From: Candidatus Wirthbacteria bacterium CG2_30_54_11
Lineage (GTDB): Bacteria; Patescibacteriota; CG2-30-54-11
DNA: 53,596 nucleotides
Assembly (NCBI GenBank): GCA_001873755.1
Contig: MNZT01000052.1
Location: 1 to 53,596, forward strand
Direction: 5' to 3'
Shown here: in pieces, positions 8,266-53,515 of the stretch
How positions within the stretch are numbered: position 1 is the stretch's first letter
Layout: every line of letters begins with the position of its first letter
Program-made: the position numbers and the translations under genes
Notes under the pieces: model-generated
The model's input: only the letters and a program-made list of their open reading frames with translations
Told to the model about the DNA's origin: nothing
Databases searched by the model: none

Positions 8266-8307
8266 TTGACATAGCCATGTACTATGTATAACATAGTACA
8301 TGGCTAT
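8266..8307 (+). promoter_or_regulatory. TTGACA -35-like hexamer fused to a perfect 17-bp inverted repeat (candidate operator, possibly for the downstream PadR)
   Basis: TTGACA at 8266-8271. ATAGCCATGTACTATGT (8271-8287), ATA, ACATAGTACATGGCTAT (8291-8307) are perfect reverse complements and carry nested ATGT/ACAT half-sites. Confidence 0.5.
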
Positions 8308-8950: not shown

Positions 8951-8965
8951 ATACGAGGTGTGCAC

Positions 8966-19153: not shown

Positions 19154-19555
19154 TCAGGCAGCGCTGGCTTCCACGACCTTCACTTCCGGGGCAGGACCCG
19201 CATGGTCCTCTTTCAGATGTTTGATGAGACCGGAGAGCATCTTTGCTATATCAGTGCAGGTCTCGTAGAGCGCGGTCCGCTGCTCGACACTGATACATCT
19301 GAGGTCCTCGGCCACATAGAGCGTGGACTTGTACTCGCCGCAGTAGCCGCGGGCGATGTACAGGAACCGGTCAAATTCATGCGAACCTTTGCGTTCGTAG
19401 CCTTTAGCGATATTGTTCAGGATAGTGAGCGAGTCCCTCTGGAGCTGGTCGCGGATACGGTCATCGACACAGGATACCAGCACAGTCGCCGTAGCGACGG
19501 TCAATTCCCTTGCTTTCTGCCAGACCTTCAGATCTTCGAACTGTGGATACGACAT
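19154..19555 (-). CDS. Four-helix-bundle protein (23S rRNA intervening-sequence protein / S23-like, PF05635 family)
   Basis: FEDLKVWQKARELT...QLQRDSLTILNNIAKGYERKGSHEFDRFLYIARGYCGEYKSTLYVA fits the family pattern (F.dL.vWqkA...Q..Ra..Si..NIAEG..R.s..ef..FL.iA.GS..E). RBS AAAGGAGAAT. Confidence 0.8.
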   Translation of the reverse strand: MSYPQFEDLKVWQKARELTVATATVLVSCVDDRIRDQLQRDSLTILNNIAKGYERKGSHEFDRFLYIARGYCGEYKSTLYVAEDLRCISVEQRTALYETCTDIAKMLSGLIKHLKEDHAGPAPEVKVVEASAA

Positions 19556-19691: not shown

Positions 19692-19735
19692 GGTATAACA
19701 GAACTGATTTCAGATGTCTTTGTACTGTAATACAA
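19692..19735 (-). promoter_or_regulatory. Copy 1 of the conserved 21-nt motif plus promoter (upstream of the four-helix-bundle gene)
   Basis: Minus strand: TTGTATTACAGTACAAAGACA (19735-19715). AAGACA acts as the -35, then a 17-nt spacer and TATACC as the -10 (19697-19692). Confidence 0.5.
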
Positions 19736-20192: not shown

Positions 20193-20266
20193 TGGGAGAT
20201 CGTCCAATGGTAGGACAGCAGACTCTGAATCTGTTTATCGGGGTTCGAATCCCTGTCTCCCAACCA
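20193..20266 (+). tRNA. tRNA-Gln (anticodon CUG), CCA encoded
   Basis: Cloverleaf read by hand. Acceptor TGGGAGA/TCTCCCA. D arm GTCC-AATGGTA-GGAC. Anticodon arm GCAGA-CTCTGAA-TCTGT (anticodon CTG). T arm CGGGG-TTCGAAT-CCCTG. Discriminator A plus CCA. 74 nt. Confidence 0.9.
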
Positions 20267-20389
20267 TTCGACTCGCACAAGCTCGCTCATGGCTGTGGCC
20301 GGTTGACTAGATGTCAGTGCGAATCGAATGCCCTGAGCGAACCCTGAGTGAGGTCATCCGAATCGAAGGGAGAGTCGAAGGACTCATAT

Positions 20390-20411
20390 ACCCGCGTAGA
20401 GCGGGTTTTTT
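20390..20411 (+). terminator. Intrinsic terminator ending the tRNA-Gln transcript
   Basis: ACCCGC-GTAGA-GCGGGT followed by T6. Confidence 0.7.
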
Positions 20412-20425
20412 GTTGTCTAACGTGG

Positions 20426-21154
20426 TTATTCGGTCAAGACGCGTTCCCCGTCCGGGATAGTGCCGTCGAACTTCATCTGCCCGGCATTGAAGCTGACCGA
20501 CTTGACGGTGAAAGCCGGAACATCACGCATGATCCTCGTGGTCAAGATCTCCGCGAGTCCCGATACATCGAACTGTCCCAGCGGTACCGCGAGGCGGCCT
20601 ATCTCCAGTTTCTGTATCGTGTACGCGGGCTGATTGTCGGTGATCGTGGCGTTCGCCTTTAAATACACCGGCGGATCGGTCATTACGAGGTTGAGCGCTG
20701 ATTTTGCTTTGTCCACATCGCCGGATGCATAACCCATGGCTTCGGCAAATCCGTTGATGCGGCCCATGTCCAGTTTGGCCGAAAATTAGAGACTGCCGTC
20801 GTCTTTGATCCTGAGCTGAGGCGAAGAGATCGGCATATACTTCCATTCCGCAGCCGCCAGCCGGGCGGTGAGTTCTTCCTGGGTAAAACTCTTATTGACT
20901 GCGGTCTTTTTGTCCGTGAACACAAGGGTCTTGCCATCAGAAGCAGGCTCGGTCATCGTCTGAAAAGTACCGCCGATCTTCTGGTCAAAACTAGCCTTGT
21001 CCTGCGCGGTATAGGTGACCCCGAGATCCCGCGGCTTATCCGAGCCGAACACTGAGGACAGACCGGGCACAAACCCGAGATACCCGAGGACCAGGACAGC
21101 CCCGACCACGAGCAGAACGATGAGCGTTACCACCATCTTCATCAGTTTCTTCAT
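20426..21154 (-). pseudogene. Paralog of the 16258-17058 exported protein, interrupted by one in-frame TAA
   Basis: Track ORFs 20786-21235 and 20426-20767 are in the same frame and separated only by TAA (20788-20786). The stop aligns with a Glu of the intact paralog (DGSGEISGKIDKAKLKGFA vs DGSL*FSAKLDMGRINGFA). Start ATG at 21154 with RBS GAGGTAG. Confidence 0.7.
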
Positions 21155-21324
21155 GACCGCTACCTCGTTAGGGAAAACTGGGAGTATTCTACCCGATTCA
21201 GAGAGCGTTGAGAACACTTTGGCATCAAACATCAACCGCTGAGGTCAGACAACAGGACTTGACGGCAGGAGTGCACTATTTTATAATTTGAACCAAAGAT
21301 TAGAATAATTATAGTCTTTGGATC

Positions 21325-21912
21325 ATGAAGTACGAAAAGAAGCCTGTTTCCAGCCTCCTCAGATCGGATCGGACCGTTTTCTCCTTTCAGGACATCTGCC
21401 TCTTGTGGGGAACAACGGATGCTGATGCGGCGATCGCGGCGGTGAATTATTATGTCCGCAAGGGAGAGCTCGTCCGCCTCCGGCGCGGTATCTATGCCAA
21501 GGACGGAAATTATGACCGCAGAGAGCTCGCCAGCAGGATCTGCACCCCGTCCTATGTCAGCTTTGAAACCGTACTTGTATCACATGGTATTAATTTCCAA
21601 TACTATGGGCAGATATTTGTTGCCTCCTACCTGTCCCGGGAGATCATCGTGAACGGTCAGGTCTATATCTACCGCCGGATCAAGGACAGTGTCCTGATCG
21701 AACCAGCAGGTATCATCACCCAGAGAGGCAGTTCGACCGCAACTCCGGAACGGGCGTTCCTCGATATGATATACCTGAACAAGGAATACCATTTTGATAA
21801 CCTGAGTCCGCTCGACTGGGACCGGGTGTTCGAACTGCTCCCCCTGTACGACAACCAGCGTATGGCCCGTACCGTGAACACATATTACTCTGATCATCAG
21901 GCATCCAAATGA
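21325..21912 (+). CDS. AbiEi-family antitoxin (type IV toxin-antitoxin system)
   Basis: Architecture and motifs (ELVRLRRGIYA, TPSYVSFETVL, ATPERAFLDMIY) are typical of AbiEi. The 4-nt overlap (ATGA) with the next gene gives the canonical abiEi-abiEii pairing. Confidence 0.8.
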   Translation: MKYEKKPVSSLLRSDRTVFSFQDICLLWGTTDADAAIAAVNYYVRKGELVRLRRGIYAKDGNYDRRELASRICTPSYVSFETVLVSHGINFQYYGQIFVASYLSREIIVNGQVYIYRRIKDSVLIEPAGIITQRGSSTATPERAFLDMIYLNKEYHFDNLSPLDWDRVFELLPLYDNQRMARTVNTYYSDHQASK

Positions 21913-22610
21913 CGATACCCGCTCTTAACCCTGCCCGACACAAGACCTTATTGCTGCAAATCCTCAAAGACATCTATTCCGATGCATCCATTGCCTCCGT
22001 GCTGGGATTCAAAGGCGGGACCGCAGCTTTCCTGTTCTATGGGCTGGACCGTTTTTCCGTGGACATCGATCTGGATCTTCTGGATGGATCAAAGGAGGAC
22101 GCTGTATTCAAACGGGTGGAACAGATCGCCAGACAATACGGGACGGTCAGGGAGGTATCGCGCAAACGGTATACACTGCTTATCATCCTGTCTTATGAAA
22201 CTGGTGCCACCCAGGTTAAAATTGAAATCAACCGCAGAACATTCGGTTCGCACTACCACATATTGACCTATCTCGGCATATCCATGCAGGTCATGGTGCA
22301 GGAGGACATGTTCGCCCACAAGCTGATGGCCATGCACGAACGAATCGGCAAGACCAGCCGCGATATCTATGATGTCTGGTTCTTCCTGCGGCATACATGG
22401 GACATCAACCGGGAGATCGTTGAACAGCGTGCGGGCATGCCGTTCACAGACCTTGTACAGCGTTGTGTCGGTCAACTGGAGACAATGGCTGACCGCTCCA
22501 TCCTGAGCGGACTGGGAGAACTCCTGACTCCCGGCCAGAAGACATGGACAAAAACCAGACTCAAAGGCGACACGATATTCCTGCTCAGAGCACTGGCGGG
22601 GGAGAAGTGA
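21909..22610 (+). CDS. Nucleotidyltransferase AbiEii/AbiGii toxin family (DUF1814)
   Basis: GFKGGTAAFLFYGLDRFSVDIDLDL is the family's signature nucleotidyltransferase motif. Confidence 0.85.
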   Translation: MTIPALNPARHKTLLLQILKDIYSDASIASVLGFKGGTAAFLFYGLDRFSVDIDLDLLDGSKEDAVFKRVEQIARQYGTVREVSRKRYTLLIILSYETGATQVKIEINRRTFGSHYHILTYLGISMQVMVQEDMFAHKLMAMHERIGKTSRDIYDVWFFLRHTWDINREIVEQRAGMPFTDLVQRCVGQLETMADRSILSGLGELLTPGQKTWTKTRLKGDTIFLLRALAGEK

Positions 22611-22657
22611 TTGCAGGATGGGTGGGTGGTCTTTTCTATGTTGTCGGACGCACCCGT

Positions 22658-24055
22658 TCACCACGTCCCACAACGAGATATATCGAATACTTCTATTTCC
22701 CGAACCGCATCCTCCACTGGCATACCAGTGGAAGAGTAGATGTTTCCCGCCAGTAAACCACTGGTGCCCATACAGACTTCTTCTCCGTCGCGGTATCCCC
22801 GGAGCCTGACCGACCAGCCGTCAGGGATATGGACCGCAGCGGCATCCCCCTTCGCCGGAACGGCTTCGGAGGATACTTCGACAGGATTTACGGTATACAC
22901 TCCAGGCTCACTGGTATGGAAGTCCGGCTTACCGTTGCAGGCGCCGGCCGCGGCGAACTGGTCCGCGACCGCATTGGGCGGGTCGGGATAGATGACCACT
23001 TCCGGCTTTTGGCTGTGCACGAATTTACGATCCCGGTTCAGGTATTCTTTCGTCCGCAGACAGGTCGAGCACCAGTTCATCTCGCTCACAGAGATCTTGC
23101 CGGTATCCCAGAGCACCTGCTCCACTGAGGCCACATGACCCGGGCAGCCCTGCACATCATAGACAAAAATATCGCCCTCCCTCGGACAGTCGTCTACCAG
23201 GAATCCATCCATAAACGCCCAGTAATCCCAGTTGCAGGCATTGCCATGGCCGGGGTGATCGGCCGCTGCCGCCCCGACCTCAGGCCGCATGTAGGCTGCC
23301 CACCAGGTGCAGTTGCCGTAGTCGCCGGTGAAATTCTCGCTGCAGGACCAGTAGGGCACCTCACGGTCAGAGAACTGACTGCAGCAGCTGTTCTGCGCGG
23401 TCTCACTGTAGTCGCAGACGGTCGCAGGATCCGGCTCAGGCCCTGAGTCCGTCGAAGGATGACAGGCCGGCTCGTCGTGCACCGCGAACTGCTCGGGCAG
23501 GGAAGTCACTGTGGACATGGGCCCGGGATAAAAGCGGATAAGCGCTTCTCGAAAATCAGTCTCGGAACCGGTCGCCCAGACCAGATAGTTCCGGTCTGCT
23601 CCTGCTATGTACGCAGAATACGACAGCGCTGTTTCGCAGTACTTCGTCACGATGGCCTCCTGTCCGCCGATCAGGGTGCGACCAGGCTCCACGAAGTCAA
23701 AATTATCGAACCAGGCGCTCTGGGTGGAGCGGATCCAGTCGATCAGAGATACGCTTCCGTCCCGTGGCAGGGCATAGATATTGATGGTGCTAGCAGGGCT
23801 CGTGAGCAACAGACGGGTCGTTTCTTCTTCGCTCCCGGGACGGAGCTTCCAGGTGTCAGGATAGTCGAGCACGAACCCTGCCCCTGTATAGCGAGTAAGT
23901 CCTGCTTCCAGCGGGATAGCGGAGAAGTCGGGCGCGGCGACCGGTTCTGCTTCGTCGACAGTGGCGACTTCGCGTTCTGGTCCGGTGGTGCGGAGAGGGA
24001 GCGCGGTCAGGGCAAGGGCGAGGAGGAAGAGGAGGAGGGGGAGTTTGCGAAGCAT
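22658..24055 (-). CDS. Secreted CHAP-domain peptidoglycan hydrolase with Cys-rich linker
   Basis: Signal peptide MLRKLPLLLFLLALALTALPL. CHAP Cys block GNCTWWAAYMRPEVG and His block GDIFVYDVQGCPGHVASVEQV. Confidence 0.75.
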   Translation of the reverse strand: MLRKLPLLLFLLALALTALPLRTTGPEREVATVDEAEPVAAPDFSAIPLEAGLTRYTGAGFVLDYPDTWKLRPGSEEETTRLLLTSPASTINIYALPRDGSVSLIDWIRSTQSAWFDNFDFVEPGRTLIGGQEAIVTKYCETALSYSAYIAGADRNYLVWATGSETDFREALIRFYPGPMSTVTSLPEQFAVHDEPACHPSTDSGPEPDPATVCDYSETAQNSCCSQFSDREVPYWSCSENFTGDYGNCTWWAAYMRPEVGAAAADHPGHGNACNWDYWAFMDGFLVDDCPREGDIFVYDVQGCPGHVASVEQVLWDTGKISVSEMNWCSTCLRTKEYLNRDRKFVHSQKPEVVIYPDPPNAVADQFAAAGACNGKPDFHTSEPGVYTVNPVEVSSEAVPAKGDAAAVHIPDGWSVRLRGYRDGEEVCMGTSGLLAGNIYSSTGMPVEDAVREIEVFDISRCGTW

Positions 24056-24216
24056 GGGAGAGGGGAACCATAGGATCAGACAAGCAGATCATAAACCTTT
24101 AATAGCAGGAAGGAAAAGGATTACCAGATCGCCTACGGCGTCATTTGCCGGGCAGAGAAGTAAAAGCCTATAATGACCACGAGGTCAAAGCATCCAATCA
24201 TCTTTGAGGATTTCAA

Positions 24217-26469
24217 ATGAGCGAGACTGTTTTCACCTAGGTAAACTACAATCTGGGCTCTCTGATTGAACGAATTGAGATCGGGGAAATCGGTCTCCCT
24301 GATATCCAGCGGCCATTTGTCTGGAAGGACGCCAAGGTCCGCGACCTGTTTGATTCAATGTACAAAGGTTTTCCCGTCGGATACCTGTTATTCTGGCAAA
24401 ATGCCTTTTCTGATGACGCCCGATCCATCGGGACCAATTCCAAACAAAAAACACCTCGACTCCTCATCGTGGATGGTCAGCAAAGGCTGACATCTCTATA
24501 CGCTGTCGTGAAAGGAATTCCCGTTGTACGCGAAAATTTCGAAAAAGAATTAATACATATTGCATTCAACCCGCTGCTTGATAAATTTGAAGTGGCAGAC
24601 GCGGCCATACGCCGAGATTCATCATTTATCCCCGACATTTCAATTCTTTGGAATCCCGACAAAAAAATAACGAGCATTATTCGTGAATACACCGCCAATC
24701 TAAAATCAACCAAAGAAGACATCACAGAGGCAGATGAAGCTCGGATTGAAGATTCCATCTTAAAACTGCAGGGATTGCATTGCTTTCCCTTTACAGCGCT
24801 TGAACTATCGGCAGCCATCACCGAGGAAGCAGTCGCGGATGTCTTTGTCCGAATCAACAGCAAAGGTACTCCGCTCAACCAGGCGGATTTCGTGTTGACC
24901 CTCATGTCTGTATTCTGGGATGAAGGACGCACGCAACTAGAATCATTCTGTAGAGCATCCCGTAAGCCGCCGGCCACAGGTCCTTCACCGTTCAATTATT
25001 TCATCAAACCTGATCCGGACCAGCTGCTCCGGGTTAGTGTCGGGGTTGGATTCAAAAGAGCGCGGCTCAAATATGTCTATTCACTCTTGCGTGGCAAAGA
25101 CCTGGAAACCGAACAGTTCAGTGATGCACGCAGGGACGAACAGTTCGCTATTCTAAAAGAAGCCCAGGAACGAACGATCAACCTTCTGTACTGGCAGGAT
25201 TTCATGAAGTGCATTACGCTCGCTGGATTTCGCTCAGAGAGCATGATCAGTTCCCATAACAGCCTGATTTTTTCCTATATCCTCTATCTCCTCGGGCGGA
25301 CAGAATACAAAGTCGAAGAATACCAGCTGAGACGCGTTATCGCTCGGTGGTTCTTCATGTCCAGCCTGACCGGCCGATTCACCGGATCCCCGGAATCAGC
25401 CATGGAATTTGATCTCGCCCGATTCCGCGAAATCCGGGACGCGCACGGCTTTCTCCACACGCTCGAACATGCATGTGATCTCGCGCTCACTGACAGCTAT
25501 TGGAAAATCACTCTGCCCAATGATCTTGCCACATCTTCACCACGAAGCCCCTCACTGTTTGCCTACAACGCCGCTTTGGTTTTACTTGACGCGCCAGCTT
25601 TATTTTCTCGATTAAAAGTATCTGAACTACTTGATCCTGTAGCTCAAGGAGTACGTGGGGCAGTAGAAAGGCATCATCTGTTTCCCAAGGGGTATCTCGC
25701 TACTCTCAGGATCACTGACCTCAGAGAAACCAATCAGATCGCGAACTACGCTCTCGTCGAATGGGGTGACAATGGTGATATCGAGGATCAACCTCCCTCT
25801 GAATATTTAACCCCTCTCCTCAACCGGTTCAACGAAACAGACCGTCAACGCATGTGCCACCTCCATGCCCTTCCCCAGGGATGGGAGCAGATGGAGTATC
25901 AGCAATTTCTGGAAGCACGGCGTGAACTAATTGCCCAGGTCGTATCCGAAGGATACCGAACCCTCATGACGGATCATGACGCGGCGTACACCGCCCAGCC
26001 ACTCTCCCTTCAGGATATGGTCGCACTCGGAGAATCAAGCGCTGTGGAATTCAAGTCCACTCTACGGATAAATCTACATACCAAAGAGGTGGATCCACGC
26101 ATGGAACTGGCGGTACTGAAGACTATCGCCGGCTTTCTGAACACCAACGGCGGCACCCTGACCATCGGCGTGACCGATGACGGGCAGGCAGTCGGTATCG
26201 AAACTGATAGATTTGATAATGAAGACAAGATGAGCCTCCACCTGGTCAACCTCATCCGGAATCATATGGGACCCGTGGTCACGCCCAATATCCATATCAG
26301 GTTCGAGGAATACGAGGAAAATCGGGTGCTTATGGCGGTATGTGCCAAATCCAAAGCACCAGTGTATGTGAAGGATGGAACGGTTGAACGGTTCTATATC
26401 CGCACCGGGCCATCCACCACGGAGCTAACTGCGAGCCAGATACAGGAATATATCAAACAGAGGTTCTAG
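24217..26469 (+). pseudogene. DUF262 (ParB/Srx-like, GmrSD/COG1479-type) plus HNH-like nuclease plus C-terminal AlbA_2 (Schlafen-like) fusion; in-frame TAG at codon 8
   Basis: RBS GAGGA then the ATG at 24217 gives MSETVFT, then TAG (24238-24240), then in-frame VNYNLGSLIERIEIGEIGLPDIQRPFVWKD...IVDGQQRLTSL (DUF262). ERHHLFPKGYL...NQIANYALVEWGDN is the HNH-like block. ESSAVEFKS...LKTIAGFLNTNGGTLTIGVTDDG is AlbA_2. The track ORF begins only at the internal ATG 24358. Confidence 0.7.
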
Positions 26470-26529
26470 TCGGGATCAGTACGGTCCAAGATAATTAGAC
26501 AGATAGGGGGTAGTGGTTCTGGTTGATGA

Positions 26530-26590
26530 CCGTGAATTTATACTATATTTCATTAAAATTCACGGCAAATTGAGTTTTTACCGTGAATTT
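26530..26590 (+). promoter_or_regulatory. Three copies of a CCGTGAATTT element (inverted pair plus direct copy) upstream of fic
   Basis: CCGTGAATTT at 26530-26539, AAATTCACGG at 26556-26565 and CCGTGAATTT at 26581-26590. They sit in an AT-rich spacer 40 nt before the fic ATG. Confidence 0.5.
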
Positions 26591-26630
26591 GCTACACTTC
26601 GCCTAGGCAATTATTTCAAGGGAGGACGCT

Positions 26631-27512
26631 ATGGCGATCAACCAGAAAATGAAACAGAGAATAGATACCCTGAAAAAAGAATATGATTCCCTGAAAACAG
26701 GCAAGGAGTCATTGCTGGCTATGATTATGGAGACCGAGGTCCCAGAAGCGGTCTATAACTCCAACGCGATCGAAAATTCCACCCTCACCATCGCAGAGAC
26801 GGAAAAAATCCTCATGGAGATGAAGGTATCCCGCCATATCTCCGTGCGGGAAGTATTTGAAGCCAAAAACCTCGCCCGGATATCTGACTATTTGATGAAG
26901 AAAACAACCTCGTTCTCGCTGGACAGAGAACTGATCCTCCTGCTCCACTCCATGCTCATATCCAATATCGACGACACCATCGCCGGCAGATTCCGCCAGC
27001 GGGATGAATATGTCCGGGTCGGCATGCACATCGCTCCGGCCCCGGAGCATATCGAATCCATGATGGAATCGCTGCTGCTCGAGTATTCCGGAAATCACAG
27101 TTCATACTTCCTGGACAGGATCGCTCTGTTTCACCTGGGTTTCGAGCATATTCACCCGTTCTGCGACGGCAATGGCCGTATCGGCCGGGTGCTGATCAAC
27201 TGCCAGCTTTCTCAACAGGGATTCCCCCCCGTCATCATCCGGGACAAGGAAAAACAACTCTACTACGCTGCTTTTCGGGAATTCAAAGACAAAAAGAAAA
27301 CGGTGGTCATGGAAAGAGTGCTGATACTCGCGCTCCTGGAATCATTCCATAAAAGGCTTGCCTATCTGAAAGGCAACGCCATCATCACGATTACCGAATA
27401 CGCCGTACAACAGGAAATTCGGCCGCAGATACTTCTCAACAAAGCAAAGCGTCAGACCATACCGGCATTCCGGGAAAAAGGTATCTGGAAGATCGGAATC
27501 GATCAGGGATAA
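26631..27512 (+). CDS. Fic family protein (AMPylase-type) with N-terminal inhibitory helix and C-terminal HTH-like tail
   Basis: Fic motif HPFCDGNGRIGR. Class II-type inhibitory motif SNAIEN ((S/T)xxxE(G/N)). RBS GGGAGGA. Confidence 0.85.
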   Translation: MAINQKMKQRIDTLKKEYDSLKTGKESLLAMIMETEVPEAVYNSNAIENSTLTIAETEKILMEMKVSRHISVREVFEAKNLARISDYLMKKTTSFSLDRELILLLHSMLISNIDDTIAGRFRQRDEYVRVGMHIAPAPEHIESMMESLLLEYSGNHSSYFLDRIALFHLGFEHIHPFCDGNGRIGRVLINCQLSQQGFPPVIIRDKEKQLYYAAFREFKDKKKTVVMERVLILALLESFHKRLAYLKGNAIITITEYAVQQEIRPQILLNKAKRQTIPAFREKGIWKIGIDQG

Positions 27513-27539: not shown

Positions 27540-27583
27540 TTGTATCACAGTACAAAGACAAACCGATCCCGGCCTGATACAGT
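27540..27583 (+). promoter_or_regulatory. Copy 2 of the conserved 21-nt motif plus promoter (upstream of recQ)
   Basis: TTGTATCACAGTACAAAGACA (27540-27560). The -10 TACAGT (27578-27583) lies 17 nt after AAGACA. 34 nt before the recQ ATG. Confidence 0.5.
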
Positions 27584-27616: not shown

Positions 27617-29752
<2,136 letters not shown>

Positions 29753-32180: not shown

Positions 32181-32209
32181 TTGACTAGTACTTCAGTCAG
32201 TTGTAGTAT
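32181..32209 (+). promoter_or_regulatory. Sigma70-like promoter of the RHH-crp operon
   Basis: TTGACT (32181-32186), 17 nt, TAGTAT (32204-32209). Confidence 0.55.
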
Positions 32210-32242
32210 GCGTAGCGAAACAATTAATTATACTGGAACTAT

Positions 32243-32416
32243 ATGGCAAGCAGCAGTAAACAGCGCGTCACCCTGTTCATCGATCCCGCTCTCGTGAAAC
32301 ACGCCAAAGCCCAGGCCGTGATGGAAGACCTCACCTACGCAGAGCTTGTAGAAAAAGCTCTGCTCAAATATCTGCCCGATGAGACAGTCATTAAACGAGC
32401 TGTGATTCGTGACTGA
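32243..32416 (+). CDS. Ribbon-helix-helix (CopG/Arc-like) small protein, 57 aa
   Basis: MASSSKQRVTLFIDPALVKHAKAQAVMEDLTYAELVEKALLKYLPDETV... shows the beta-strand then two helices pattern of an RHH. Not in the track (under 60 aa). The stop overlaps the GTG of the next gene (GTGACTGA). Confidence 0.6.
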   Translation: MASSSKQRVTLFIDPALVKHAKAQAVMEDLTYAELVEKALLKYLPDETVIKRAVIRD

Positions 32417-33077
32417 TGACAAAACAAGGATATTCAAAGAATTCTTCTCCCGGTTCACTCTCCGTCATTACAAACAGGGTGAAACTCTCATCCGCGCGGA
32501 TGATGACCCGCAGGGCATTTTCTGCCTGACCACGGGGTATGTGCGCCAATACACGATATCCAAAAGCGGGATGGAACTGACCTTGCATATTCTGCAGCCG
32601 ACCTCCTACTTCCCTATGGTCTGGGCGATCAACGGGACACCGAATGTTTACTATTTCGAAGCCCTCACCGAAGTAGAGATAGGACGGGCGCCCCGGGATG
32701 AGGTCGTTGCTTTTATCAAGAACAAACCCGATCTGGTCTTTGCCCTCATGAGCGAACTGCTGGAGGATTATGCCGAATCGCTGCTCAGGATCGAGCATCT
32801 GGTGTTCAGCGATGCCTACCGGCGGGTGATCTCAGTATTGCTCTATATCGCCAAACATTTCGGCGAAACGGCCGACGATCATGTCACCGTCAAACACCGA
32901 TTCACGCATCAGGACATCGCCACCCTGGTCGGCGTCGCCCGGGAAACCGCCAGCATCGAAATGGCAAAATTAACCAAAAGTGGTCTGGTCCGCCTCGTCG
33001 ATCACAGCATGGAATTCGACAGCCTCCAAAAACTGGAAGCAGAACTGCTGCTGGCTAGCCCCTCTTTCGAGACCTGA
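32409..33077 (+). CDS. Crp/Fnr family transcriptional regulator
   Basis: N-terminal cNMP-binding beta-barrel (GETLIRADDDPQGIFCLTTGYVRQY). C-terminal HTH FTHQDIATLVGVARETASIEMAKLTKSGLV. Confidence 0.85.
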   Translation: MTDDKTRIFKEFFSRFTLRHYKQGETLIRADDDPQGIFCLTTGYVRQYTISKSGMELTLHILQPTSYFPMVWAINGTPNVYYFEALTEVEIGRAPRDEVVAFIKNKPDLVFALMSELLEDYAESLLRIEHLVFSDAYRRVISVLLYIAKHFGETADDHVTVKHRFTHQDIATLVGVARETASIEMAKLTKSGLVRLVDHSMEFDSLQKLEAELLLASPSFET

Positions 33078-39607: not shown

Positions 39608-39668
39608 GTTAACGGGTTAACGAGTTTTTCCGGGAACCCGCAACTCGTGAACTCGTTAACCCGTTAAC
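39608..39668. repeat. Perfect 19-bp inverted repeat carrying four GTTAAC palindromes
   Basis: GTTAACGGGTTAACGAGTT (39608-39626) and AACTCGTTAACCCGTTAAC (39650-39668) are exact reverse complements separated by 23 nt. Located in the divergent ABC/recA intergenic region. Confidence 0.7.
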
Positions 39669-39675
39669 GCATTTC

Positions 39676-39719
39676 TTGTACCACAGTACAAAGACATCGC
39701 TGATCACTGGTTGTATGAT
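39676..39719 (+). promoter_or_regulatory. Copy 3 of the conserved 21-nt motif plus promoter (upstream of recA)
   Basis: TTGTACCACAGTACAAAGACA (39676-39696; core TTGTAC-N4-GTACAA). The -10 TATGAT (39714-39719) lies 17 nt after AAGACA. Confidence 0.5.
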
Positions 39720-39850
39720 GCGAACGGTCGACAAGATACCTTGTAATGCAGGGTTTTCCTTTGTATACTGTTCTCGTTCGATAAAATCATACCAAAACAC
39801 AGCCCCTGCCTGTGTTTTTTGTGTACTTACAGCCATTTAGGAGGTGCCAG

Positions 39851-41032
39851 ATGACAGATCCCAACAAACAGAAAGCTCTCGAACTCGCCATGATCCAGAT
39901 CGAAAAAACTTTCGGCAAAGGCTCGATCATGAAACTCGGGGACAAGGAAAAACAGGAAGTCGATATCATCTCGACCGGCTCCATCGCACTCGACATCGCA
40001 CTCGGCGTCGGCGGCGTTCCCCGGGGCCGGATCACGGAAATCTATGGACCAGAATCTTCCGGCAAGACCACCCTGTGCTCCCATATCATCGCCGAAGCCC
40101 AGAAAAAAGGCGGCACTGTCGCTTTTGTCGATGCTGAGCATGCGTTTGATCCTGTCTACGCCCAGCATATCGGCGTCGATGTCGACAATCTCCTCATCTC
40201 CCAGCCGGATACCGGCGAACAGGCGCTCGAGATCGTCGAGACCCTGGTCCGCAGCGGTGCCGTGGATGTCGTGGTCGTTGATTCCGTCGCGGCCCTGACC
40301 CCCAGAGCCGAGATCGAAGGCGAAATGGGAGACAGCCACATGGGCCTCCATGCCCGCCTCATGAGCCAGGCTCTGCGCAAGCTCGCCGGCGTCGTGTCCA
40401 AGACCAACACCGCTCTCATCTTCACCAATCAGATCCGCATGAAGATCGGCGTCATGTTCGGCAACCCGGAGACCACCACCGGCGGCCAGGCGCTCAAGTT
40501 CTACGCCTCCATCCGCATCGACATCCGCCGCAAAGAAGCCATCAAGAAGGGCGATGAAGTCATGGGCAATCACGTCCTCGCCCGGGTAGTGAAGAACAAG
40601 GTCGCCGCCCCCTTCCGCAGCGCCGAATTCGATATCATGTACAACGAAGGTATCTCGTACGAAGGTGGCCTCATCGATGTCGGCACCGAAGTCGATGTGG
40701 TAGAGAAGAGCGGCAGCTGGTATAGCTTCGAGGGCGAACGCATCGGCCAGGGCAAGGAAGCCGCCAAGGAATTCCTCCGTGCCAATCCTGAAATCTCCAA
40801 GAAGATCGATGCCCGTCTGCGCGTCAAAGCAGAAGATCTCACCCTGACCCAGGTAGCCGGGCACGAGACGGAAGAATCAGAAGACAATGAAGCCGCAGAA
40901 GCCCCGGTTCCGACCGTCTCCTCCGTCTCCACCAAGTCAGCGGAATTCAAACCCGCCGCACCGGCAGCCGCCTCCAAGAAGGAAGAAGCTTCCCGTTCTT
41001 CCTCCACGATGCCCGGCGACGATATCTTCTAG
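39851..41032 (+). CDS. recA: Recombinase RecA (393 aa, with about 45-aa low-complexity acidic/Ala-Pro C-terminal tail)
   Basis: [25 protein letters not shown], Walker [62 protein letters not shown] and the ATG at 39851 (the track starts at 39812). Confidence 0.95.
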
Positions 41033-41109
41033 TTTGTCAGCCCTGACACAAAAGAGTTTAATAGACACGGGCGCCCGTCGCGCCCGTGTTTTTGATACGG
41101 GGAGGATCC

Positions 41110-41625
41110 ATGAACGACCAGTTTTCTGCCTGGATAGACAGCTACGCCTATCAGCTGCTTGCCCGCCGCGACTATGCGGTAAAAGAGCTGCGGGAAAAGA
41201 TCATCCGGGCCGCAGAAAAAAAGTTCGAAGCGCTGGACGAAGCTCACGAGGACGAGGTTCGGCAACTAATCGAGACGCTCGAGCAGCGCGGGCACCTCGA
41301 CGAAGACCGCTTCATCCGCGCCTGGATAGCGAACCGCATTGCCTATAAACCCAGAAGCCGGTATATGCTTCTTCAGGAACTGCGCCTGCACGGAGCAGAC
41401 CTGGACCTGGCCGAAAGGATCCTAAAAGAAGAGGTCCCCCCGGCAGTGGAAAAGAAGATGGCTGCCTCCTTGGCCGGGAAGAAAGGGCGAACCCAGAAAG
41501 ACCCCCAAAAAATCATAGCCTATCTTTCTTCCAAAGGATTTTCCTACGAAACCATACGAAGCGTTTTAGGAAACCAGGACAGCGAAAAGGCCAGACAAAA
41601 ATCCCCCTTGGTCCCCCTTTCCTAA
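41110..41625 (+). CDS. recX: Recombination regulator RecX
   Basis: Position directly after recA. YAYQLLARRDYAVKELREKI, DEDRFIRAWI and KIIAYLSSKGFSYETI are RecX-type three-helix repeats. GGAGGAT RBS and the ATG at 41110. Confidence 0.8.
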   Translation: MNDQFSAWIDSYAYQLLARRDYAVKELREKIIRAAEKKFEALDEAHEDEVRQLIETLEQRGHLDEDRFIRAWIANRIAYKPRSRYMLLQELRLHGADLDLAERILKEEVPPAVEKKMAASLAGKKGRTQKDPQKIIAYLSSKGFSYETIRSVLGNQDSEKARQKSPLVPLS

Positions 41626-47118: not shown

Positions 47119-50100
47119 CTACGGACACAGTTCCGGCGTGCAGGGGTGCCCCCAGCCGAGCATATTGAGACCTGAATTCCCGGGATAGACATTGTTGGAA
47201 CCGGGGATAAATTCCATGTGGTATTTGTTCCGGCTATTGTACTGGCAGATAGTAAGCGTGTTCGGCCCGATCTCGCAGATGATGCCGACGTGGTGCACGC
47301 CGCTTTCCCCCGGCGAATTCATGCCGGCGATATCGCCGACCTGGGGTGCGTCATATCCTCCATTTTCATGGTAGACCCCATCTGCGACCAGCCCGTTGAT
47401 CATATTTTCCGCGCCGCGGTCGGCCCAGCCGGCGTTTTTGAAGGCGGAATTGGTGTGCTGGTAGACCGCCATCACGAAGTCGGCGCAGAGGGCGTAGTCG
47501 CCGATACCAGTCCCCTCGTTACTTTCAAAATTTCTATAATTGGGATAGGATCGCAGCGCTCCATGGGGCCAGACATCCACCAGCATTCCTTCACCATAGT
47601 GTTCATTATCCTCCAGGAAGAGGGTCACATTGGCCATGAGGTTTGGGCCGGCGCCGATTCCTCCGCCTCCACCTCCGGTTCCGGTGACAGTACACTGAGG
47701 AGCAGTATACCCGCTGGCCGCGTCACCGTATTGTTTGGTGAAGTACAGGAGCCAGTCGCAGTAGGTTTTTTTTTCGCTTTTGCAGTCAGTACCATCACAG
47801 ACCTCCATGGTCATCAGGTCGGCGGGCTTCGAAGGATCACAGCTTCCGGTGTAGCGATAGCCGATATAGCGGATCTGTTCTTCACTGGGAGAGTCGCTGG
47901 GCAAGACCTGGTCAGGGGTGCACCACGGTTCTCCATCCGCGGGATCGACGCAGGGGCTGCCATCCTCCTGAGCGCAGCTCGCACAGCTCTGCAGGCGAGC
48001 GGCGATGAAGTAGCCGCCGCCGAAAATAGTATCTTCATTGCCGGTAGTTTTGTTGTTGTCATCACAGACGAGTGGCTCGACCTCGGTTCCCTTTTTTGAC
48101 CACATAGGGGAGGAGGCGACCTGATCCTTGACCTGATCCCAGGAGGGTACTTCGTCCGGGGTCGCCGGATTCGGGGTTGTCCCCAGCTGCATGAGCCCGG
48201 ATTCGTTCGGTGGGGTTGGTTGGACTTCACATTGTTTATCAAACGTCGTCGCCCCGCTATTTTCCAGCGTGATAACCGCAGCAATCAGGGGGGCATAGAC
48301 CCCGGTAGAGACCGAAGAGGCATTGATCCAGGCGGTCAGCTGCGGATCAAATGGCGCATTGACAGGCATCCCGCCGGTGCACGACACCGTCCGGGGGCCG
48401 TCCCCCAGGGGATCTATATAGCTTTCTATCATTTTGATATAGGACATTTGCTGGCAGTTGACCTCATAGTAGATATCCATTTTGCCGGCTGCCACGATCT
48501 CTTGACAGGCTTTGACATAATCGCCGTTCAGGAAATCTGTCTGCCATTCTTTCGACTTCGGATCGGCATGATACTTCTCTATCATCTTCTCGGCCGCGCG
48601 TGTAAAACCGTCATTGGCGGCTTCTCCGTATTTTCCGTCCACCAGCGCCAGGGCTATCCCGCCTCCGAGCCAGTCGAACCAGGAGGGGCTCGTCGAGGCG
48701 ACTTTGTCGCCACCCGCGATCGCGGAGGCCAGATGTCCCATGGATGATCCCTCCACGAAGCCGGACTTGGCCGCGTTCAGTGCGGTGAACAGTTCCAGCC
48801 CGACGGTCTGGTCATACAGATCGGCGATGGCTTGGTTGATGCCCAGGAGGCTTACACCACTGAGCAGGTTTTTGAGAGTTTCCATGGCATCGACGATCAC
48901 CTGGTTGTCCGGGAGGGTGACATCGCCGTCATTGACCACATAGTTGCGGTCCGTTGAGCTGAAGCATTTCTTGGGAGCGTCCAGCGTGCTGGCGCTGGCT
49001 GCTTGATAAGCGCTTCCTACGGCCACTGGATCGGTTTCGGCATAGGCGGTATTGATGATGCCATAGAGTTCTGCGATCTGGGTTCTTTGTTGGGCATCGA
49101 AGTATTCTTCGAACTCAGGCATAGCAACCAGCTGCTGAAGAGAGCTGCCAAATGTTACCCAGTCAGCCACTTTGGCGAGCCAGCTGGCCGACCCGGCCAG
49201 AGCCGTGACCTCCGGGCCGTTCGAGGAGCCGTCCATATAGTGCTGCGCCCGGTCCAGCTTGGTCGGGGTCGTACCATCTGCCGCATAGGCGCGGTACACC
49301 CCCATATACTCCTCGGCCAGCAGGGTAGCGATGCGGGAGTATTCGTCCGTCGTTCCCTCCCCATCGGCCAGGACCGTGTCGAGGAGCGGGTGAATATCGT
49401 CCGGGATGCGGTGGTCGGAGATCAGGGTCTCGACCCGGCCGAGGGCGAGCATCCTATAGTCCCGGTCAGTCTCCATGCGTTCTGCGGCGAGCTGGGTCAG
49501 ATCCGCGACCACCGGTTTGGTAGTGTTGGTTTCGATCATACTGGAGACCAGGCCGATGAAGCCCAGACTAGCTATAAAGAAGCCACACATAGTCAGAGGA
49601 ACCGCGACTACGAGCATGATGGCGGCCCCGATGATGAGCTTGTTGGCTTTTCTCAGCAGTTTGGAGGCCCCGGGGATCGCGCGGATCACCTCGCCTGCAC
49701 CGAACGCGGCATCGAGGGCGGCAATCTCGGCTTCGGTGGCGACTCCGGCCCCGACATTTTCCACGACGGCCTTGGTTTCTTCTGCTTTCTGGCCGATGCC
49801 GTCTATGCCATCCTGAACCTTGTCGTTGACCTGATTTTTGATATTTTCTTCGTCGCCGGCCTTGGCCTGGGCGCGGTCAGCTTTTTTCTGAGCATACTTG
49901 GCCTTGATCTTTTTGAGATCCTTGGCAGTATCTTTGACTGCATCGACTGCGGTGCCCAGGACCGGGGCCGCACTTGCTCCTGCTGTGGCCGCTCCAGCGG
50001 CAGAGCCTGCGCCTCCGGCTCCTCCTGCAATATCTGTTGCCCCGGAGAGTCCTCCGGCGTCCGGCAGCCCCATGGGAGCAGCCCCTCCGCCGAGTCCATC

Positions 50101-50910
50101 TGCTCCGGGGATGCCCTTGTCGCCGAGCATTTTGTTCCACGCTTTTCCATCAGTTCGATCGGTGTTACCGATACCGTCTATGCCCCCCATCATCTTGTTG
50201 AAATCGCCCATTTTGTCTTTGCCCAGGTAGCCGCCCATGAAGCCGTCGACCGCTCCCTGGTTGTTCTTGTAGGCGTCAGAGAGCCCCTTCATGAATCCCT
50301 GGGCCTTAGCCGGATCTTTGACGTCTCCGGATTTGATTTTGTCAGCCATCCGGCCCAGAGCCTGATCCATAGGCATGCCGGATGAGCCTCCCCCGATGGC
50401 GTTTTTTAGCCCTCCCATGAAATTATCAGCTTTGCCCGTATCGACGCCCAGCTTGTCCAACATCCCATGGACCTGTGGCCTATAGGTGTCGTAGGCTTTG
50501 CAGGCGCTATCCGCGAATTTGAACGCATCGTCAATATTGTTCGGTGGTTCTTTTTGCTGGTCTCCCCGGGCGGCCCTTCCGAGTCCTCCCATGAAATCGG
50601 ACATATTCCCTGTGTAGCCTGCCTTAGCCGCCGCCTTGTCGATGAGGGGTTTCAGACAGCCGGCCGAGTTGTAGAGTCGAGAGGCGAACGAGTTATCATC
50701 ATTTCCGCCATCCATACGGCGTTTGGCTTCATTCTGTTTGATCGCCATGCGATCATCGGCATCCTTCATCGGCGCCTGAACTTCATCCCGGTGCTGATCG
50801 TGGGCACCCCAGGCTTCTTTATCGTGGGCGTCGTTTGCTGCCCGGATTGCGTTCTGGCGATCCTCGTTCGCTTTTCGCGTTTTTTCCTGCTCTTCAAAAG
50901 GATCAGACAT
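47119..50910 (-). CDS. T4SS-associated bifunctional cell-wall hydrolase (VirB1-like SLT plus C-terminal CHAP) with a long N-terminal Gly/Met-repeat region and a central TM segment
   Basis: SLT block VITLENSGATTF...ESGLMQLG (about 48130-48290). CHAP Cys block DYALCADFV (about 47473-47499) and His block GVHHVGII (about 47281-47301). TM LIIGAAIMLVVAVPLTMCGFFIASLGFIGLVSSMI (about 49540-49640). N-terminal repeats DFMGGLG, NFMGGLK, GFMKGLS, GFMGGYL. Confidence 0.8.
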   Translation of the reverse strand: MSDPFEEQEKTRKANEDRQNAIRAANDAHDKEAWGAHDQHRDEVQAPMKDADDRMAIKQNEAKRRMDGGNDDNSFASRLYNSAGCLKPLIDKAAAKAGYTGNMSDFMGGLGRAARGDQQKEPPNNIDDAFKFADSACKAYDTYRPQVHGMLDKLGVDTGKADNFMGGLKNAIGGGSSGMPMDQALGRMADKIKSGDVKDPAKAQGFMKGLSDAYKNNQGAVDGFMGGYLGKDKMGDFNKMMGGIDGIGNTDRTDGKAWNKMLGDKGIPGADGLGGGAAPMGLPDAGGLSGATDIAGGAGGAGSAAGAATAGASAAPVLGTAVDAVKDTAKDLKKIKAKYAQKKADRAQAKAGDEENIKNQVNDKVQDGIDGIGQKAEETKAVVENVGAGVATEAEIAALDAAFGAGEVIRAIPGASKLLRKANKLIIGAAIMLVVAVPLTMCGFFIASLGFIGLVSSMIETNTTKPVVADLTQLAAERMETDRDYRMLALGRVETLISDHRIPDDIHPLLDTVLADGEGTTDEYSRIATLLAEEYMGVYRAYAADGTTPTKLDRAQHYMDGSSNGPEVTALAGSASWLAKVADWVTFGSSLQQLVAMPEFEEYFDAQQRTQIAELYGIINTAYAETDPVAVGSAYQAASASTLDAPKKCFSSTDRNYVVNDGDVTLPDNQVIVDAMETLKNLLSGVSLLGINQAIADLYDQTVGLELFTALNAAKSGFVEGSSMGHLASAIAGGDKVASTSPSWFDWLGGGIALALVDGKYGEAANDGFTRAAEKMIEKYHADPKSKEWQTDFLNGDYVKACQEIVAAGKMDIYYEVNCQQMSYIKMIESYIDPLGDGPRTVSCTGGMPVNAPFDPQLTAWINASSVSTGVYAPLIAAVITLENSGATTFDKQCEVQPTPPNESGLMQLGTTPNPATPDEVPSWDQVKDQVASSPMWSKKGTEVEPLVCDDNNKTTGNEDTIFGGGYFIAARLQSCASCAQEDGSPCVDPADGEPWCTPDQVLPSDSPSEEQIRYIGYRYTGSCDPSKPADLMTMEVCDGTDCKSEKKTYCDWLLYFTKQYGDAASGYTAPQCTVTGTGGGGGGIGAGPNLMANVTLFLEDNEHYGEGMLVDVWPHGALRSYPNYRNFESNEGTGIGDYALCADFVMAVYQHTNSAFKNAGWADRGAENMINGLVADGVYHENGGYDAPQVGDIAGMNSPGESGVHHVGIICEIGPNTLTICQYNSRNKYHMEFIPGSNNVYPGNSGLNMLGWGHPCTPELCP

Positions 50911-50931
50911 GCTGTGTCCCGTGATGATCGG

Positions 50932-52764
50932 TTAAGGTGTTGCGGCCGCTTCTGTCTTTTCCTGTTCCAGGGCTGCGAGCTTTTCCGGATTGGTGGTGAT
51001 GATCTGGTCTTCGATGTAGGAGGCGATGATTTTGATGGCGACGTGGTTCTGGCCGGCGAAGAAGAGGCCCTCCCCTACGTCGCATTCGAGCAGGAGATAC
51101 TTTTCACCCTCGGTGAGGTTGAACACGGTTGCTATCTTGTCGATGGCAGCCGTGGACTGCTTGAGCAGCACCTGCATGGAGGAGTTGGTCACGATGGCTT
51201 TGCCATAGGAGGAGGAGAGGAAGTCGTCCACGTCCTGGGTGATGGTGGTGAGACCGAGCCAGTATTTACGGGCTCGTTTGGCCAGGCCAAAGAGGAAACG
51301 GGCGCTGTCCTCGTGCTGCATCATGATCCAGGCTTCATCCACCAGGAGCAGGCGGCGTTTGTGGCTGGTCCGCACCTTATTCCAGATGAACTGGAGGATG
51401 GAGAACATGGCCATGGGACGGAGGATGTCCTCAAGGTCGCGGATGTCGAACACGATGAAGTTGTTGTTCAGCTCTACATTGGTTGCCATGTTGAAGATGC
51501 CGGCCAGGGTGCCATGGACGAATTTTTCCATTTTTTCCACCACGCTCTCGGCGCCGGGCATGGTCTTCAGCAGCTCGTAGAGGTCGCCCATGATGGGAGG
51601 GGTGTTGCCGTAGGTGCTGGGGTCAGAGATGATCCCCTTCTGGCGGTAGGCTTCCAGCAGCGCCCGGTCCAGCAGGGATTCTTCCTTATTGGTCAATTCT
51701 CCGAGCAGGATGGCGAACAGGCCCAGCAGGTAGATGATCTGGGAGCGGAGCTCGTCTCCCTCCAGATCCTGGCCCTTCTTGATATCCGCCATGTCGAACG
51801 GGTTGATATGGGTCTTGGAATTCAGGGAAATGTTGATGTAGGTGCCGCCGACTGATTCACAGAGCGCCTTGTATTCCCGTTCCGGATCGATGATGAGGAC
51901 CTCGGTGCCGATCATGAGGTAGCGGAGCGCTTCGAGCTTCACCGTGTAGCTTTTGCCGGCACCGGATTTGGCAAAGATGACGGAGTTGGCATTTTCCAGT
52001 TTGAACCGGTCAAAGATGACGAGCGAGTTGTTGTGCCTATTGAGTCCATAGAGGATGCCCTCGTTCGTGGTCAGGTCAGACGAGGTGAAGGGGAAGGTCG
52101 AGGAAAGCGCTGAGGTGTCCATGTTGCGGAGCACCTGGATGTGGTCATTGCACAGTGGCAGCGTGGTCTTGAACCCCTGCTCCATCTGCATGGCCGTCTC
52201 TTTGGTATAGATGAGCATGCCGCCGAGCATGGATTCCACCTTCTGGCAGAGCTGGGACAGTTCCTCCTTGCCATTGGCGCTCACGGTCATATAGAGGCCG
52301 AACTGGAAAAATTTTTCCTCGCCTCTCTGGATGGCATCGCGCAGGTTGTGGGCGTCCTGCAGCTGGGTCTCCAGCTCCGGGTCTTTGACCAGCCCTTTTT
52401 CCTGGTTGATCTGCCAGGTCGCTTCCATCTGGCCGATGCGGCGCTTCAGGTCCTCCATGACTGACTTGGAGTCGATGGGGTACTGGTAGAGACTGATGGC
52501 GATATCGGCGTTGAAATTGATGAGCGGCGAGAGCCAGTTGGTGCTGACATAGCGGGGATAGCCGGAGACGAACAGGGTGCGGTGGTATTTGTTCCCGATC
52601 TTCAGATAGCTGGGGTCGAGCTCGATAGAGGGCGGAGCGATGATGTCCTTGATCGTGCTCATGCCCTCCTGAAGCACGCGCTGCGTCTCCCGGGCGAGGC
52701 GTTCCTGCTCAAGTACGGCTTGCTGGTCTTTTTTATTTCCTTTTTTCCCTGGTAACAGACCCAT
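50932..52764 (-). CDS. VirB4-family type IV secretion ATPase (Gram-positive TraE/PrgJ/TcpF-like)
   Basis: Walker A FAKSGAGKSY (about 51941-51973). Walker B RLLLVDEAW. N-terminal LKIGNKYHRTLFVSGYPRYV block typical of Gram-positive VirB4 homologs. Confidence 0.85.
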   Translation of the reverse strand: MGLLPGKKGNKKDQQAVLEQERLARETQRVLQEGMSTIKDIIAPPSIELDPSYLKIGNKYHRTLFVSGYPRYVSTNWLSPLINFNADIAISLYQYPIDSKSVMEDLKRRIGQMEATWQINQEKGLVKDPELETQLQDAHNLRDAIQRGEEKFFQFGLYMTVSANGKEELSQLCQKVESMLGGMLIYTKETAMQMEQGFKTTLPLCNDHIQVLRNMDTSALSSTFPFTSSDLTTNEGILYGLNRHNNSLVIFDRFKLENANSVIFAKSGAGKSYTVKLEALRYLMIGTEVLIIDPEREYKALCESVGGTYINISLNSKTHINPFDMADIKKGQDLEGDELRSQIIYLLGLFAILLGELTNKEESLLDRALLEAYRQKGIISDPSTYGNTPPIMGDLYELLKTMPGAESVVEKMEKFVHGTLAGIFNMATNVELNNNFIVFDIRDLEDILRPMAMFSILQFIWNKVRTSHKRRLLLVDEAWIMMQHEDSARFLFGLAKRARKYWLGLTTITQDVDDFLSSSYGKAIVTNSSMQVLLKQSTAAIDKIATVFNLTEGEKYLLLECDVGEGLFFAGQNHVAIKIIASYIEDQIITTNPEKLAALEQEKTEAAATP

Positions 52765-52777
52765 AGGTATTATTTCA

Positions 52778-53515
52778 TTATTGTGTAGACTGTTCAGTTT
52801 TCAGTTTATTGATCTGTTCGAGTTCCTGTTTGGTCTTGAACGTGGTGACCGGGGTGGTGAGCTCTGAGGGATCGACTTCGAGTTTTTCGAGCTGGGCGGT
52901 GCCGGGATTGTAGATGTCATAAAAAAGTTCAATCAATTCCTGGGTGGTCAGTGGTTTTGCCTTGACCCCGACACTGCTGAGGTGGCTGATGAGTGCATCG
53001 CACCGCTGCTGGAGCTGCTGCCGGGCGGTATCGAAATTAGTATCTTCCGCTTTCTTTTTTTTGCCGAACAGTCCGGTCATGGCCTTCACTTCTTCCCCGG
53101 CCCCGCTGCTATAGGGGATGGAGACATAGAACTGGCGGTCGAGGATATTGGCCACTTCGATGAGGCGCTGGATGTATTCGATGTATTCACTGGTCTGCAG
53201 TTTGAGCAGTTCGTTTTCCTGGGCTTCCTCGTGTTTGTGCAGGGTCTCGATATAGTGGTCGATATTGAGCGCCCGGGTACGGATGATGATCTCGACCGGA
53301 AAGGTGATGGCGTTCAGAAAATTGCGATAGGCAAAAATCATGGCGTTCTGTTCCATCTCGGATTTCAGGGAAAAGTTTACATTGGTCGTACGCATGATCT
53401 GCCGGTAGCTGCCGCCCTTCAGAATGATGATACCGTCGCGGATACGGTCAATATCCAGATGCGACTGGGTAGAGGGTTTATTTGGTTTCTGCGGCATGTC
53501 CTGGCGTGGGTTCAT
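52778..53515 (-). CDS. T4SS-associated protein resembling only the N-terminal (pre-ATPase) domain of VirB4
   Basis: IRDGIIILKGGSYRQIMRTTNVNFSLKSEMEQ...FPVEIIIRTRALNIDHYIETL...RQFYVSIPY parallels LKIGNKYHRTLFVSGYP...ADIAISLYQYPIDSKSVMEDL...KFFQFGLYMTV of the adjacent VirB4. It has no P-loop. Confidence 0.5.
   Translation of the reverse strand: MNPRQDMPQKPNKPSTQSHLDIDRIRDGIIILKGGSYRQIMRTTNVNFSLKSEMEQNAMIFAYRNFLNAITFPVEIIIRTRALNIDHYIETLHKHEEAQENELLKLQTSEYIEYIQRLIEVANILDRQFYVSIPYSSGAGEEVKAMTGLFGKKKKAEDTNFDTARQQLQQRCDALISHLSSVGVKAKPLTTQELIELFYDIYNPGTAQLEKLEVDPSELTTPVTTFKTKQELEQINKLKTEQSTQ

Follow-up and report, generated by a model that had tools for sequence, protein, structure and literature searches.

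A conserved palindrome abutting the -35 element of recA, recQ and a four-helix-bundle gene is a putative SOS-like operator in Candidatus Wirthbacteria

What kind of regulator reads a 21-nt sequence that recurs, joined to the promoter, in front of recA, recQ and a gene for a four-helix-bundle protein? The sequence lies in a contig of Candidatus Wirthbacteria, a phylum that is known from groundwater, has no cultured member, branches beside the Candidate Phyla Radiation (CPR) and comes with no prior knowledge of transcription control, and the original prediction took it for an SOS-type operator fused to the -35 box. Through a comparative analysis of the whole contig stretch of 53,596 nucleotides (hereafter, the window) with related loci from metagenomes, we propose that the site is an SOS-like operator in a phylum without regulatory data and that membership of its regulator in the LexA family is putative.

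The window has a GC content of ~55% and contains recA-recX-dnaA-dnaN-recF; we therefore regard it as the origin region. Segments identical to it were found in groundwater and aquifer metagenomes. Its RecA has few relatives above 74% identity, with lower-identity matches scattered across many phyla, and a homologue of the four-helix-bundle protein at 61% identity is named Candidatus Wirthbacteria. Family matches identify the targets of the motif as recA (39851-41032, plus strand; PF00154, E = 2e-139), which is followed by the co-directional recX (41086-41625, plus strand), probably in one operon; recQ (27617-29752, plus strand; TIGR01389, 710 bits), whose product carries a C-terminal HTH_40 domain; and a gene on the minus strand (19154-19555) for a PF05635/TIGR02436 four-helix-bundle ('23S rRNA intervening sequence') protein. 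Two of the three, recA and recQ, are thus recombination/repair genes, as originally proposed. Most of the proteins closest to the window RecQ share this extra HTH_40 domain. Between the four-helix-bundle gene and recQ (20193-27512) lie a tRNA-Gln and then a defence/mobile island encoding AbiEi/AbiEii, a CHAP-domain protein, a GmrSD-like protein and Fic. At the right end of the window, the minus strand of 47119-53515 encodes a 1263-aa protein without a family match and, after it, type IV secretion-like genes of the TraG/DUF87 and TraC-like kinds.

A scan of the window places TTGTAYYACAGTACAAAGACA at 19715-19735 (minus strand), 27540-27560 (plus strand) and 39676-39696 (plus strand) with zero mismatches in each case, which reproduces the three copies, positions and orientations of the original prediction. 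Beyond these, the 53.6-kb window holds no match to TTGTAYYACAGTACAAAGACA at three or fewer mismatches, and 100 dinucleotide-preserving shuffles of the window gave none. Likewise, the bare palindrome TTGTA-N6-TACAA was seen three times against an expectation of 0.025. All three copies are intergenic, and each faces its target (recA-recX, recQ or the PF05635 gene); recF and dnaN in the window have no good operator site. The 17-nt distance from GACA to the hexamers TATGAT (recA), TACAGT (recQ) and TATACC (four-helix-bundle gene) also stands as first described, with TATACC lacking the final T of the -10 consensus.

Comparison with relatives divides the 21-mer into a 16-bp palindrome, TTGTAY-N4-RTACAA, and a -35-like nGACA, the last A of the palindrome serving as the first A of the -35-like hexamer. 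Orthologous promoters keep the palindrome arms, GACA, its distance from the -10 and the -10 itself but differ freely at the centre; with Y at position 6 and R at position 11 in every site, we write the consensus with a free centre. The full form reads TTGTAY-N4-RTACAA-N-GACA-N17-TAnnn(T). The earlier core, TGTAC-N4-GTACA, is exact in the recA copy and only there. The register is strict: the palindrome ends 22-23 nt before the -10 in 9/9 sites from the window and other organisms, so that the operator centre lies an invariant ~30.5 nt upstream of the -10. The dinucleotide TA occupies positions +18/+19 after GACA (for L077, after the palindrome plus 5 nt) in all six sites that did not come from pattern searches, with a chance probability of ~0.05 per site. 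If the -10 is set at -12 to -7, the operator would span ~-50 to -35 and be centred near -42.5 relative to the predicted transcription start.

A dyad whose centre is free to vary points to a dimeric protein, and we conclude that the composite is the predicted footprint of a dimeric DNA-binding protein abutting the -35 of a sigma-70-type promoter. The flanks and the 17-nt spacers are unrelated among the three window copies; with nothing in common outside the 21-mer, they do not constitute a repeat element.

Upstream of recA, the palindromic operator TTGTACCACAGTACAA (39676-39691, plus strand), which contains GTAC-CACA-GTAC, leads into the -35-like AAGACA (39691-39696, plus strand) and the -10 TATGAT (39714-39719, plus strand) of a distal, operator-bearing promoter. 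This AAGACA-17-TATGAT promoter passes a sigma-70 consensus scan at 9/12; both arms of the palindrome are kept in the orthologous site of the close relative L008, and GACA in L008 and L080. Downstream, an operator-free proximal promoter, TTGTAA-17-TATACT (39741-39769, plus strand), is retained by L008 and L010, and a second promoter of this kind is what a basal-plus-inducible design would have. Past the two promoters but ahead of the start codon sits a terminator-like leader hairpin, AAAACACAG-loop-CTGTGTTTT(TT) (39794-39818, plus strand), with counterparts at ~5996-6022 in L008, ~2628-2656 in L010 and ~6838-6868 in L086. Its loop is variable and its arms are conserved in these four lineages, down to a RecA identity of 69%, and a possible role of the hairpin is attenuation of recA or its regulation from the 5' UTR. 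Two smaller features accompany this region. GTTC-N2-GTTC follows the proximal promoter in the window and in L008, and a perfect 19-bp inverted repeat, GTTAACGGGTTAACGAGTT (39608-39626 and 39650-39668; four GTTAAC units), separates a divergent ABC-transporter gene from the recA operator. The repeat has a single copy in the window and a counterpart in L008, and it may serve a different regulator as operator or have a structural role.

The other two copies have weaker core promoters. Upstream of recQ, the operator and -35 composite TTGTATCACAGTACAAAGACA (27540-27560, plus strand) begins 27 nt past the fic stop codon and is followed 17 nt after GACA by the -10-like TACAGT (27578-27583, plus strand). 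Upstream of the four-helix-bundle gene, the composite TTGTATTACAGTACAAAGACA (19715-19735, minus strand), a motif match with orthologous sites in L080 and L077, is followed at the same distance by TATACC (19692-19697, minus strand), with identical hexamer and spacing in L080. Both promoters reach 8/12 and fall below the threshold of the consensus scan. Other promoters in the window, at 32185-32213 and 8266-8294, have ordinary TTGACn -35 elements and no such palindrome.

Orthologous promoters were compared at L008, L080 and L077-L079, where the sites were located without the motif as query. The recA gene of L008 (RecA 89% identical) is preceded by TTGTACCGCAATACAACGACA, 17 nt and TAGTGT. In L080, from the same assembly as L008, a gene for a four-helix-bundle protein 90% identical to that of the window is preceded by TTGTATCTGGATACAAGGACA, 17 nt and TATACC; in the alignment, similarity to the window sets in precisely with the first operator T, and the six central operator bases are the most diverged stretch of promoters otherwise 74% identical. 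In L077-L079, where the four-helix-bundle protein is 60% identical, a perfect palindrome, TTGTATCCGGATACAA, stands 23 nt before TGtTATAAA, an extended -10 (TATAAA with a TG extension), with no GACA. The recA promoter of L008 is more complex: MAFFT pairs TATGAT-GCGAACG of the window with TATTAT-ACGAACG 45 nt after GACA, past an insertion of ~28 nt, and L008 may therefore have an additional promoter (TTGCGT-17-TATTAT). L008 still has TAnnnT exactly 17 nt from GACA, for which we estimate a chance of ~0.01 from base frequencies; selection thus appears to act on the composite itself. A possible common CGAACG(TAC) element downstream of the -10s was discarded, as it occurs at chance level.

Farther away, the association changes. 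The operator is absent upstream of recA in L010/L011 (RecA 79% identical) and L086 (69%), all of which retain the proximal promoter and/or the leader hairpin. Among the relatives compared, the link between recA and the operator is thus restricted to the window organism and its 89% relative, and recA and recQ are predicted operator targets within the genus-level clade of the window. The four-helix-bundle gene, by virtue of that absence from more distant recA genes, is the most widely conserved target and the only one conserved over four organisms (window, L080, L077 and L033).

The fourth of these organisms came from a scan of metagenomes with the motif, which returned 50 loci. L033 (GC 40%) has a 21-mer identical to the four-helix-bundle copy of the window, followed by 17 nt and a perfect TATAAT (promoter 10/12), 48 nt before another PF05635 gene whose product is 32% identical to that of the window; the adjoining uvrA has no good operator site. 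L050 and L061, both from one sample, have the composite, 17 nt and TACTGT or TATATG in front of tail-fibre-like proteins that bear signal peptides and would be secreted. These three are the informative foreign loci, with L030 less certain, and L055 and L056 are the recQ and recA sites of the window organism again. The scan also matched ~15 unrelated background groups, including coding matches in phage tail-fibre genes, AT-rich marine phages and a conserved human-gut element, and TA falls at the -10 position in just one of them. A scan of a genome collection with the 21-mer gave six chance-level matches in unrelated taxa, and viral scans gave nothing relevant past the phage contigs described below. 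Overall, the recurrence of the composite or its palindrome at orthologous promoters (L008, L080, L077 and L033) identifies it as the operator of a dimeric regulator and neither a dispersed repeat nor a generic promoter element. That alternative, which the original prediction had named as its own refutation, does not hold given the unrelated flanks and the fixed register, and the claim that recA, recQ and the four-helix-bundle gene have in common a motif joined to a -35-like element is borne out.

Which regulator, then, reads the operator? We propose a LexA-like (SOS-type) repressor and assign this reading a probability of roughly 0.45. Its identity, the sign of regulation and the inducing signal are all inferred from the DNA. 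A dimeric helix-turn-helix regulator would read the 16-bp palindrome through its arms, and the composite would place recA-recX, recQ and the PF05635 gene under this one protein. Bound over ~-50 to -35, a LexA-like repressor would block access of sigma region 4 and of the RNA polymerase alpha C-terminal domains; its departure after DNA damage would supplement the constitutive proximal promoter of recA with an inducible one. The three transcription units most likely form a small DNA-damage/recombination regulon, judging from their gene content: recA and recQ both act in recombination, which argues for a functional theme, and phage homologues of the third gene, which overlap recT, have ssb nearby. 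Among known systems, palindromes conserved in front of recA belong overwhelmingly to damage-responsive repressors (LexA, DdrO, UmuDAb and LexA-like proteins of Bacteroidetes). The retention of GACA at the optimal 17-nt spacing is also in keeping with a repressor, and the promoters of recA (9/12), L033 (10/12) and L077 (extended -10) look self-sufficient.

Several observations count against a LexA-like repressor. LexA operators normally occur at varied positions within promoters, and a centre near -42 is the classic position of a class II activator; here, the register is identical in all nine sites, with the centre near -42 and abutting the -35. The recQ and four-helix-bundle core promoters are weak, the composites of L050 and L061 precede tail-fibre-like proteins, and neither recA of L010/L011 and L086 nor uvrA of L033 has a site, all of which speak against an SOS regulon. 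The window itself, as first noted, contains no lexA gene, nor any other gene for an S24 peptidase.

The resemblance to LexA boxes can be specified further. The core GTAY-N4-RTAC has the 4-N4-4 geometry of the Gram-positive and cyanobacterial boxes, as had been claimed for the Gram-positive one. Published boxes read AGTACWNWTGTACT / RGTACNNNDGTWCB in cyanobacteria and CGAAC-N4-GTTCG in Bacillus subtilis (PMC3091678), and LexA-like proteins of Bacteroidetes are among the damage-responsive repressors at recA-promoter palindromes (PMC8565304). The operator has in common with the cyanobacterial box the GTAC-N4-GTAC(/GTAT) core, the 4-N4-4 dyad and the presence at recA; it differs in its inverted flanks (T...A here, A...T there), in arms that extend to TTGTAY/RTACAA and in the absence of the conserved T before the second GTAC. 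We scanned the window with a matrix of 14 columns built from 46 published cyanobacterial LexA sites. Restricted to its eight core columns, the matrix scores the recA site highest in the window and places the recQ and four-helix-bundle sites within the top ten, tied with several other sequences. With all 14 columns, the three sites are not recovered and every score in the window is below the training median. The likeness to LexA boxes is therefore genuine, but it does not extend past the core. Thus, of the proposed SOS-type operator, the cis-regulatory palindrome joined to the -35 stands, and the attribution to SOS is qualified by the failure of the full LexA matrix and by the distant recA genes without a site.

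Relative to the Cheo/DinR box of Gram-positive bacteria, spacing and symmetry are equal and one base per half-site differs (GAAC to GTAY), but Cheo boxes occur at varied promoter positions, in contrast to the fixed register here. The E. coli-type SOS box, by its familiar consensus CTGT-N8-ACAG, has the same 16-bp span; TTGT-N8-ACAA differs in the outermost arm bases and lacks the (TA)n centre, and the lineage is unrelated. Other damage-response systems, namely PafBC (RecA-NDp), DriD and DdrO (RDRM), similarly join a motif to the promoters of recA and repair genes, and mycobacteria have two recA promoters, as does the window. However, RecA-NDp is non-palindromic and replaces the -35, and the RDRM and DriD sequences are unrelated to the operator; no WYL, DdrO or IrrE gene is present in the window. 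A literature search returned no mention of TTGTAY-N4-RTACAA; the comparison covered the boxes named here, and a similar motif may already have been described for the neighbouring Patescibacteria.

Alternatively, a class II activator (Crp/Fnr-like, WYL-type or phage-cI-like) could bind the palindrome; its dimer, centred near -42, would touch sigma region 4 and the alpha subunit and switch on otherwise weak promoters upon DNA damage, competence or some other cue. We regard this as possible, though less likely than a repressor. The strict register is at least as typical of activators as of repressors, and known class II sites (FNR and CRP at -41.5, NtcA, lambda cI at OR2/PRM) likewise consist of a 14-16-bp palindrome whose centre lies ~42 nt ahead of the transcription start and which abuts or overlaps the -35, with invariant -10 spacing across the regulon. 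Our operator has that geometry, with its centre near -41.5 for a predicted start site and an invariant distance to the -10. The -35 element lacks its two conserved T's, two of the three window promoters (recQ and four-helix-bundle) fail the consensus scan, and the L077 site keeps palindrome and register without GACA, all of which would suit a promoter that depends on an activator; a Crp/Fnr-family gene is also present in the window (32409-33077). Against this stand the retained GACA at its 17-nt optimum and the promoters named above as self-sufficient. The half-site, TTGTAY (TGTA-N6-TACA), matches neither the TGTGA of CRP (GTGA) nor the TTGAT of FNR (TTGA) nor the GTA-N8-TAC of NtcA, and activators with palindromic recA sites are rare among known systems. 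Nor is there a fitting Crp/Fnr regulator in the window: the recognition helix of its Crp-like protein, R-E-T-A-S-I, has an Arg-Glu pair predicted to read GTGA/TGA-type half-sites and not TGTA, for which reason this protein was rejected as the regulator. A PadR-like protein (8960-9292) was considered after the motif turned up where a PadR homologue begins in metagenome contig L051, and it was ruled out since both PadR operons have a different palindrome of their own and that of the window lacks a TTGTA site. No candidate regulator was found in the window. A specific form of the activator reading, in which a non-LexA, class II-type regulator controls recombination genes with the PF05635 family as the evolutionary core target, is rather unlikely in our judgement; if true, it would represent an undescribed regulon in a sister phylum of the CPR.

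The wide conservation of the site at the four-helix-bundle gene, together with the narrow range of the recA link, admits another origin, namely a regulon that stems from a mobile element or phage or is unrelated to damage, with the PF05635 gene as its core (possibly autoregulated) and recA and recQ as recent recruits in one genus. Phages carry close PF05635 homologues, the four-helix-bundle gene of the window adjoins the tRNA-Gln and the defence island, and the further targets in L050 and L061 are tail-fibre-like proteins. We nonetheless consider such an origin improbable, as the phage copies of the gene lack the site, PF05635 proteins have no known sequence-specific DNA binding (the closest solved structure is that of an uncharacterised protein) and the pairing of recA with recQ points to a functional theme. 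Finally, there may be no dedicated regulator at all; the sequence would then act as an UP-like or strong-promoter element, belong to a dispersed repeat or organise the chromosome near its origin, as parS does. All three sites are within 20 kb of dnaA-dnaN-recF, and their sequences are unusually uniform. This explanation is largely refuted and, to us, highly improbable: the flanks are unrelated, the dyad has a free centre, and orientation and -10 spacing are fixed; the other window promoters use TTGACn without the palindrome; the operator is unlike the parS consensus TGTTNCACGTGAAACA; and in the L033, L077 and L080 contigs the site tracks the four-helix-bundle gene, with no origin genes nearby.

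The locus offers a well-defined operator and a small, coherent target set as a handle for finding a DNA-damage/recombination regulator in this phylum, and it would add another data point on the divergence of SOS-type motifs between phyla. It also raises the testable idea that PF05635 four-helix-bundle proteins, which are very common and have no assigned function, take part in recombination/repair. Were the family the core target of a non-LexA activator, as considered above, PF05635 ('23S rRNA intervening sequence / Avd-like') would thereby gain its first functional connection with DNA damage or recombination. The phage contigs L070-L072 point toward the same connection. They encode a PF05635 gene 78% identical to that of the window (L070, 4546-4911), which in L070 overlaps the start of recT, upstream of ssb; the homologues are translationally coupled to recT, and this overlap suggests a role of the family in recombination modules.

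Two other palindromes came to light in the course of this work. More than 20 contigs, at least some of them from human-gut metagenomes, have in common a conserved ~90-nt element in which the perfect palindrome TTGTATTGCAATACAA is followed by AGACA (L013-L015, L022-L024, L027-L029, L035, L037, L039, L040, L042, L045, L047, L048, L053, L054, L057, L058 and L060); this element appears unrelated to the lineage of the window. Within the window, the promoter (TTGACA) of the PadR operon is overlapped by CCATGTACTATGT-ATA-ACATAGTACATGG (8275-8303), a palindrome with 13-bp arms. The operon behind it encodes an Rce1-like protease, the PadR regulator and a PspC/HAAS/Toastrack protein, and a related palindrome precedes the PadR homologue in L051. 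The 8275-8303 palindrome is probably a PadR autoregulatory operator.
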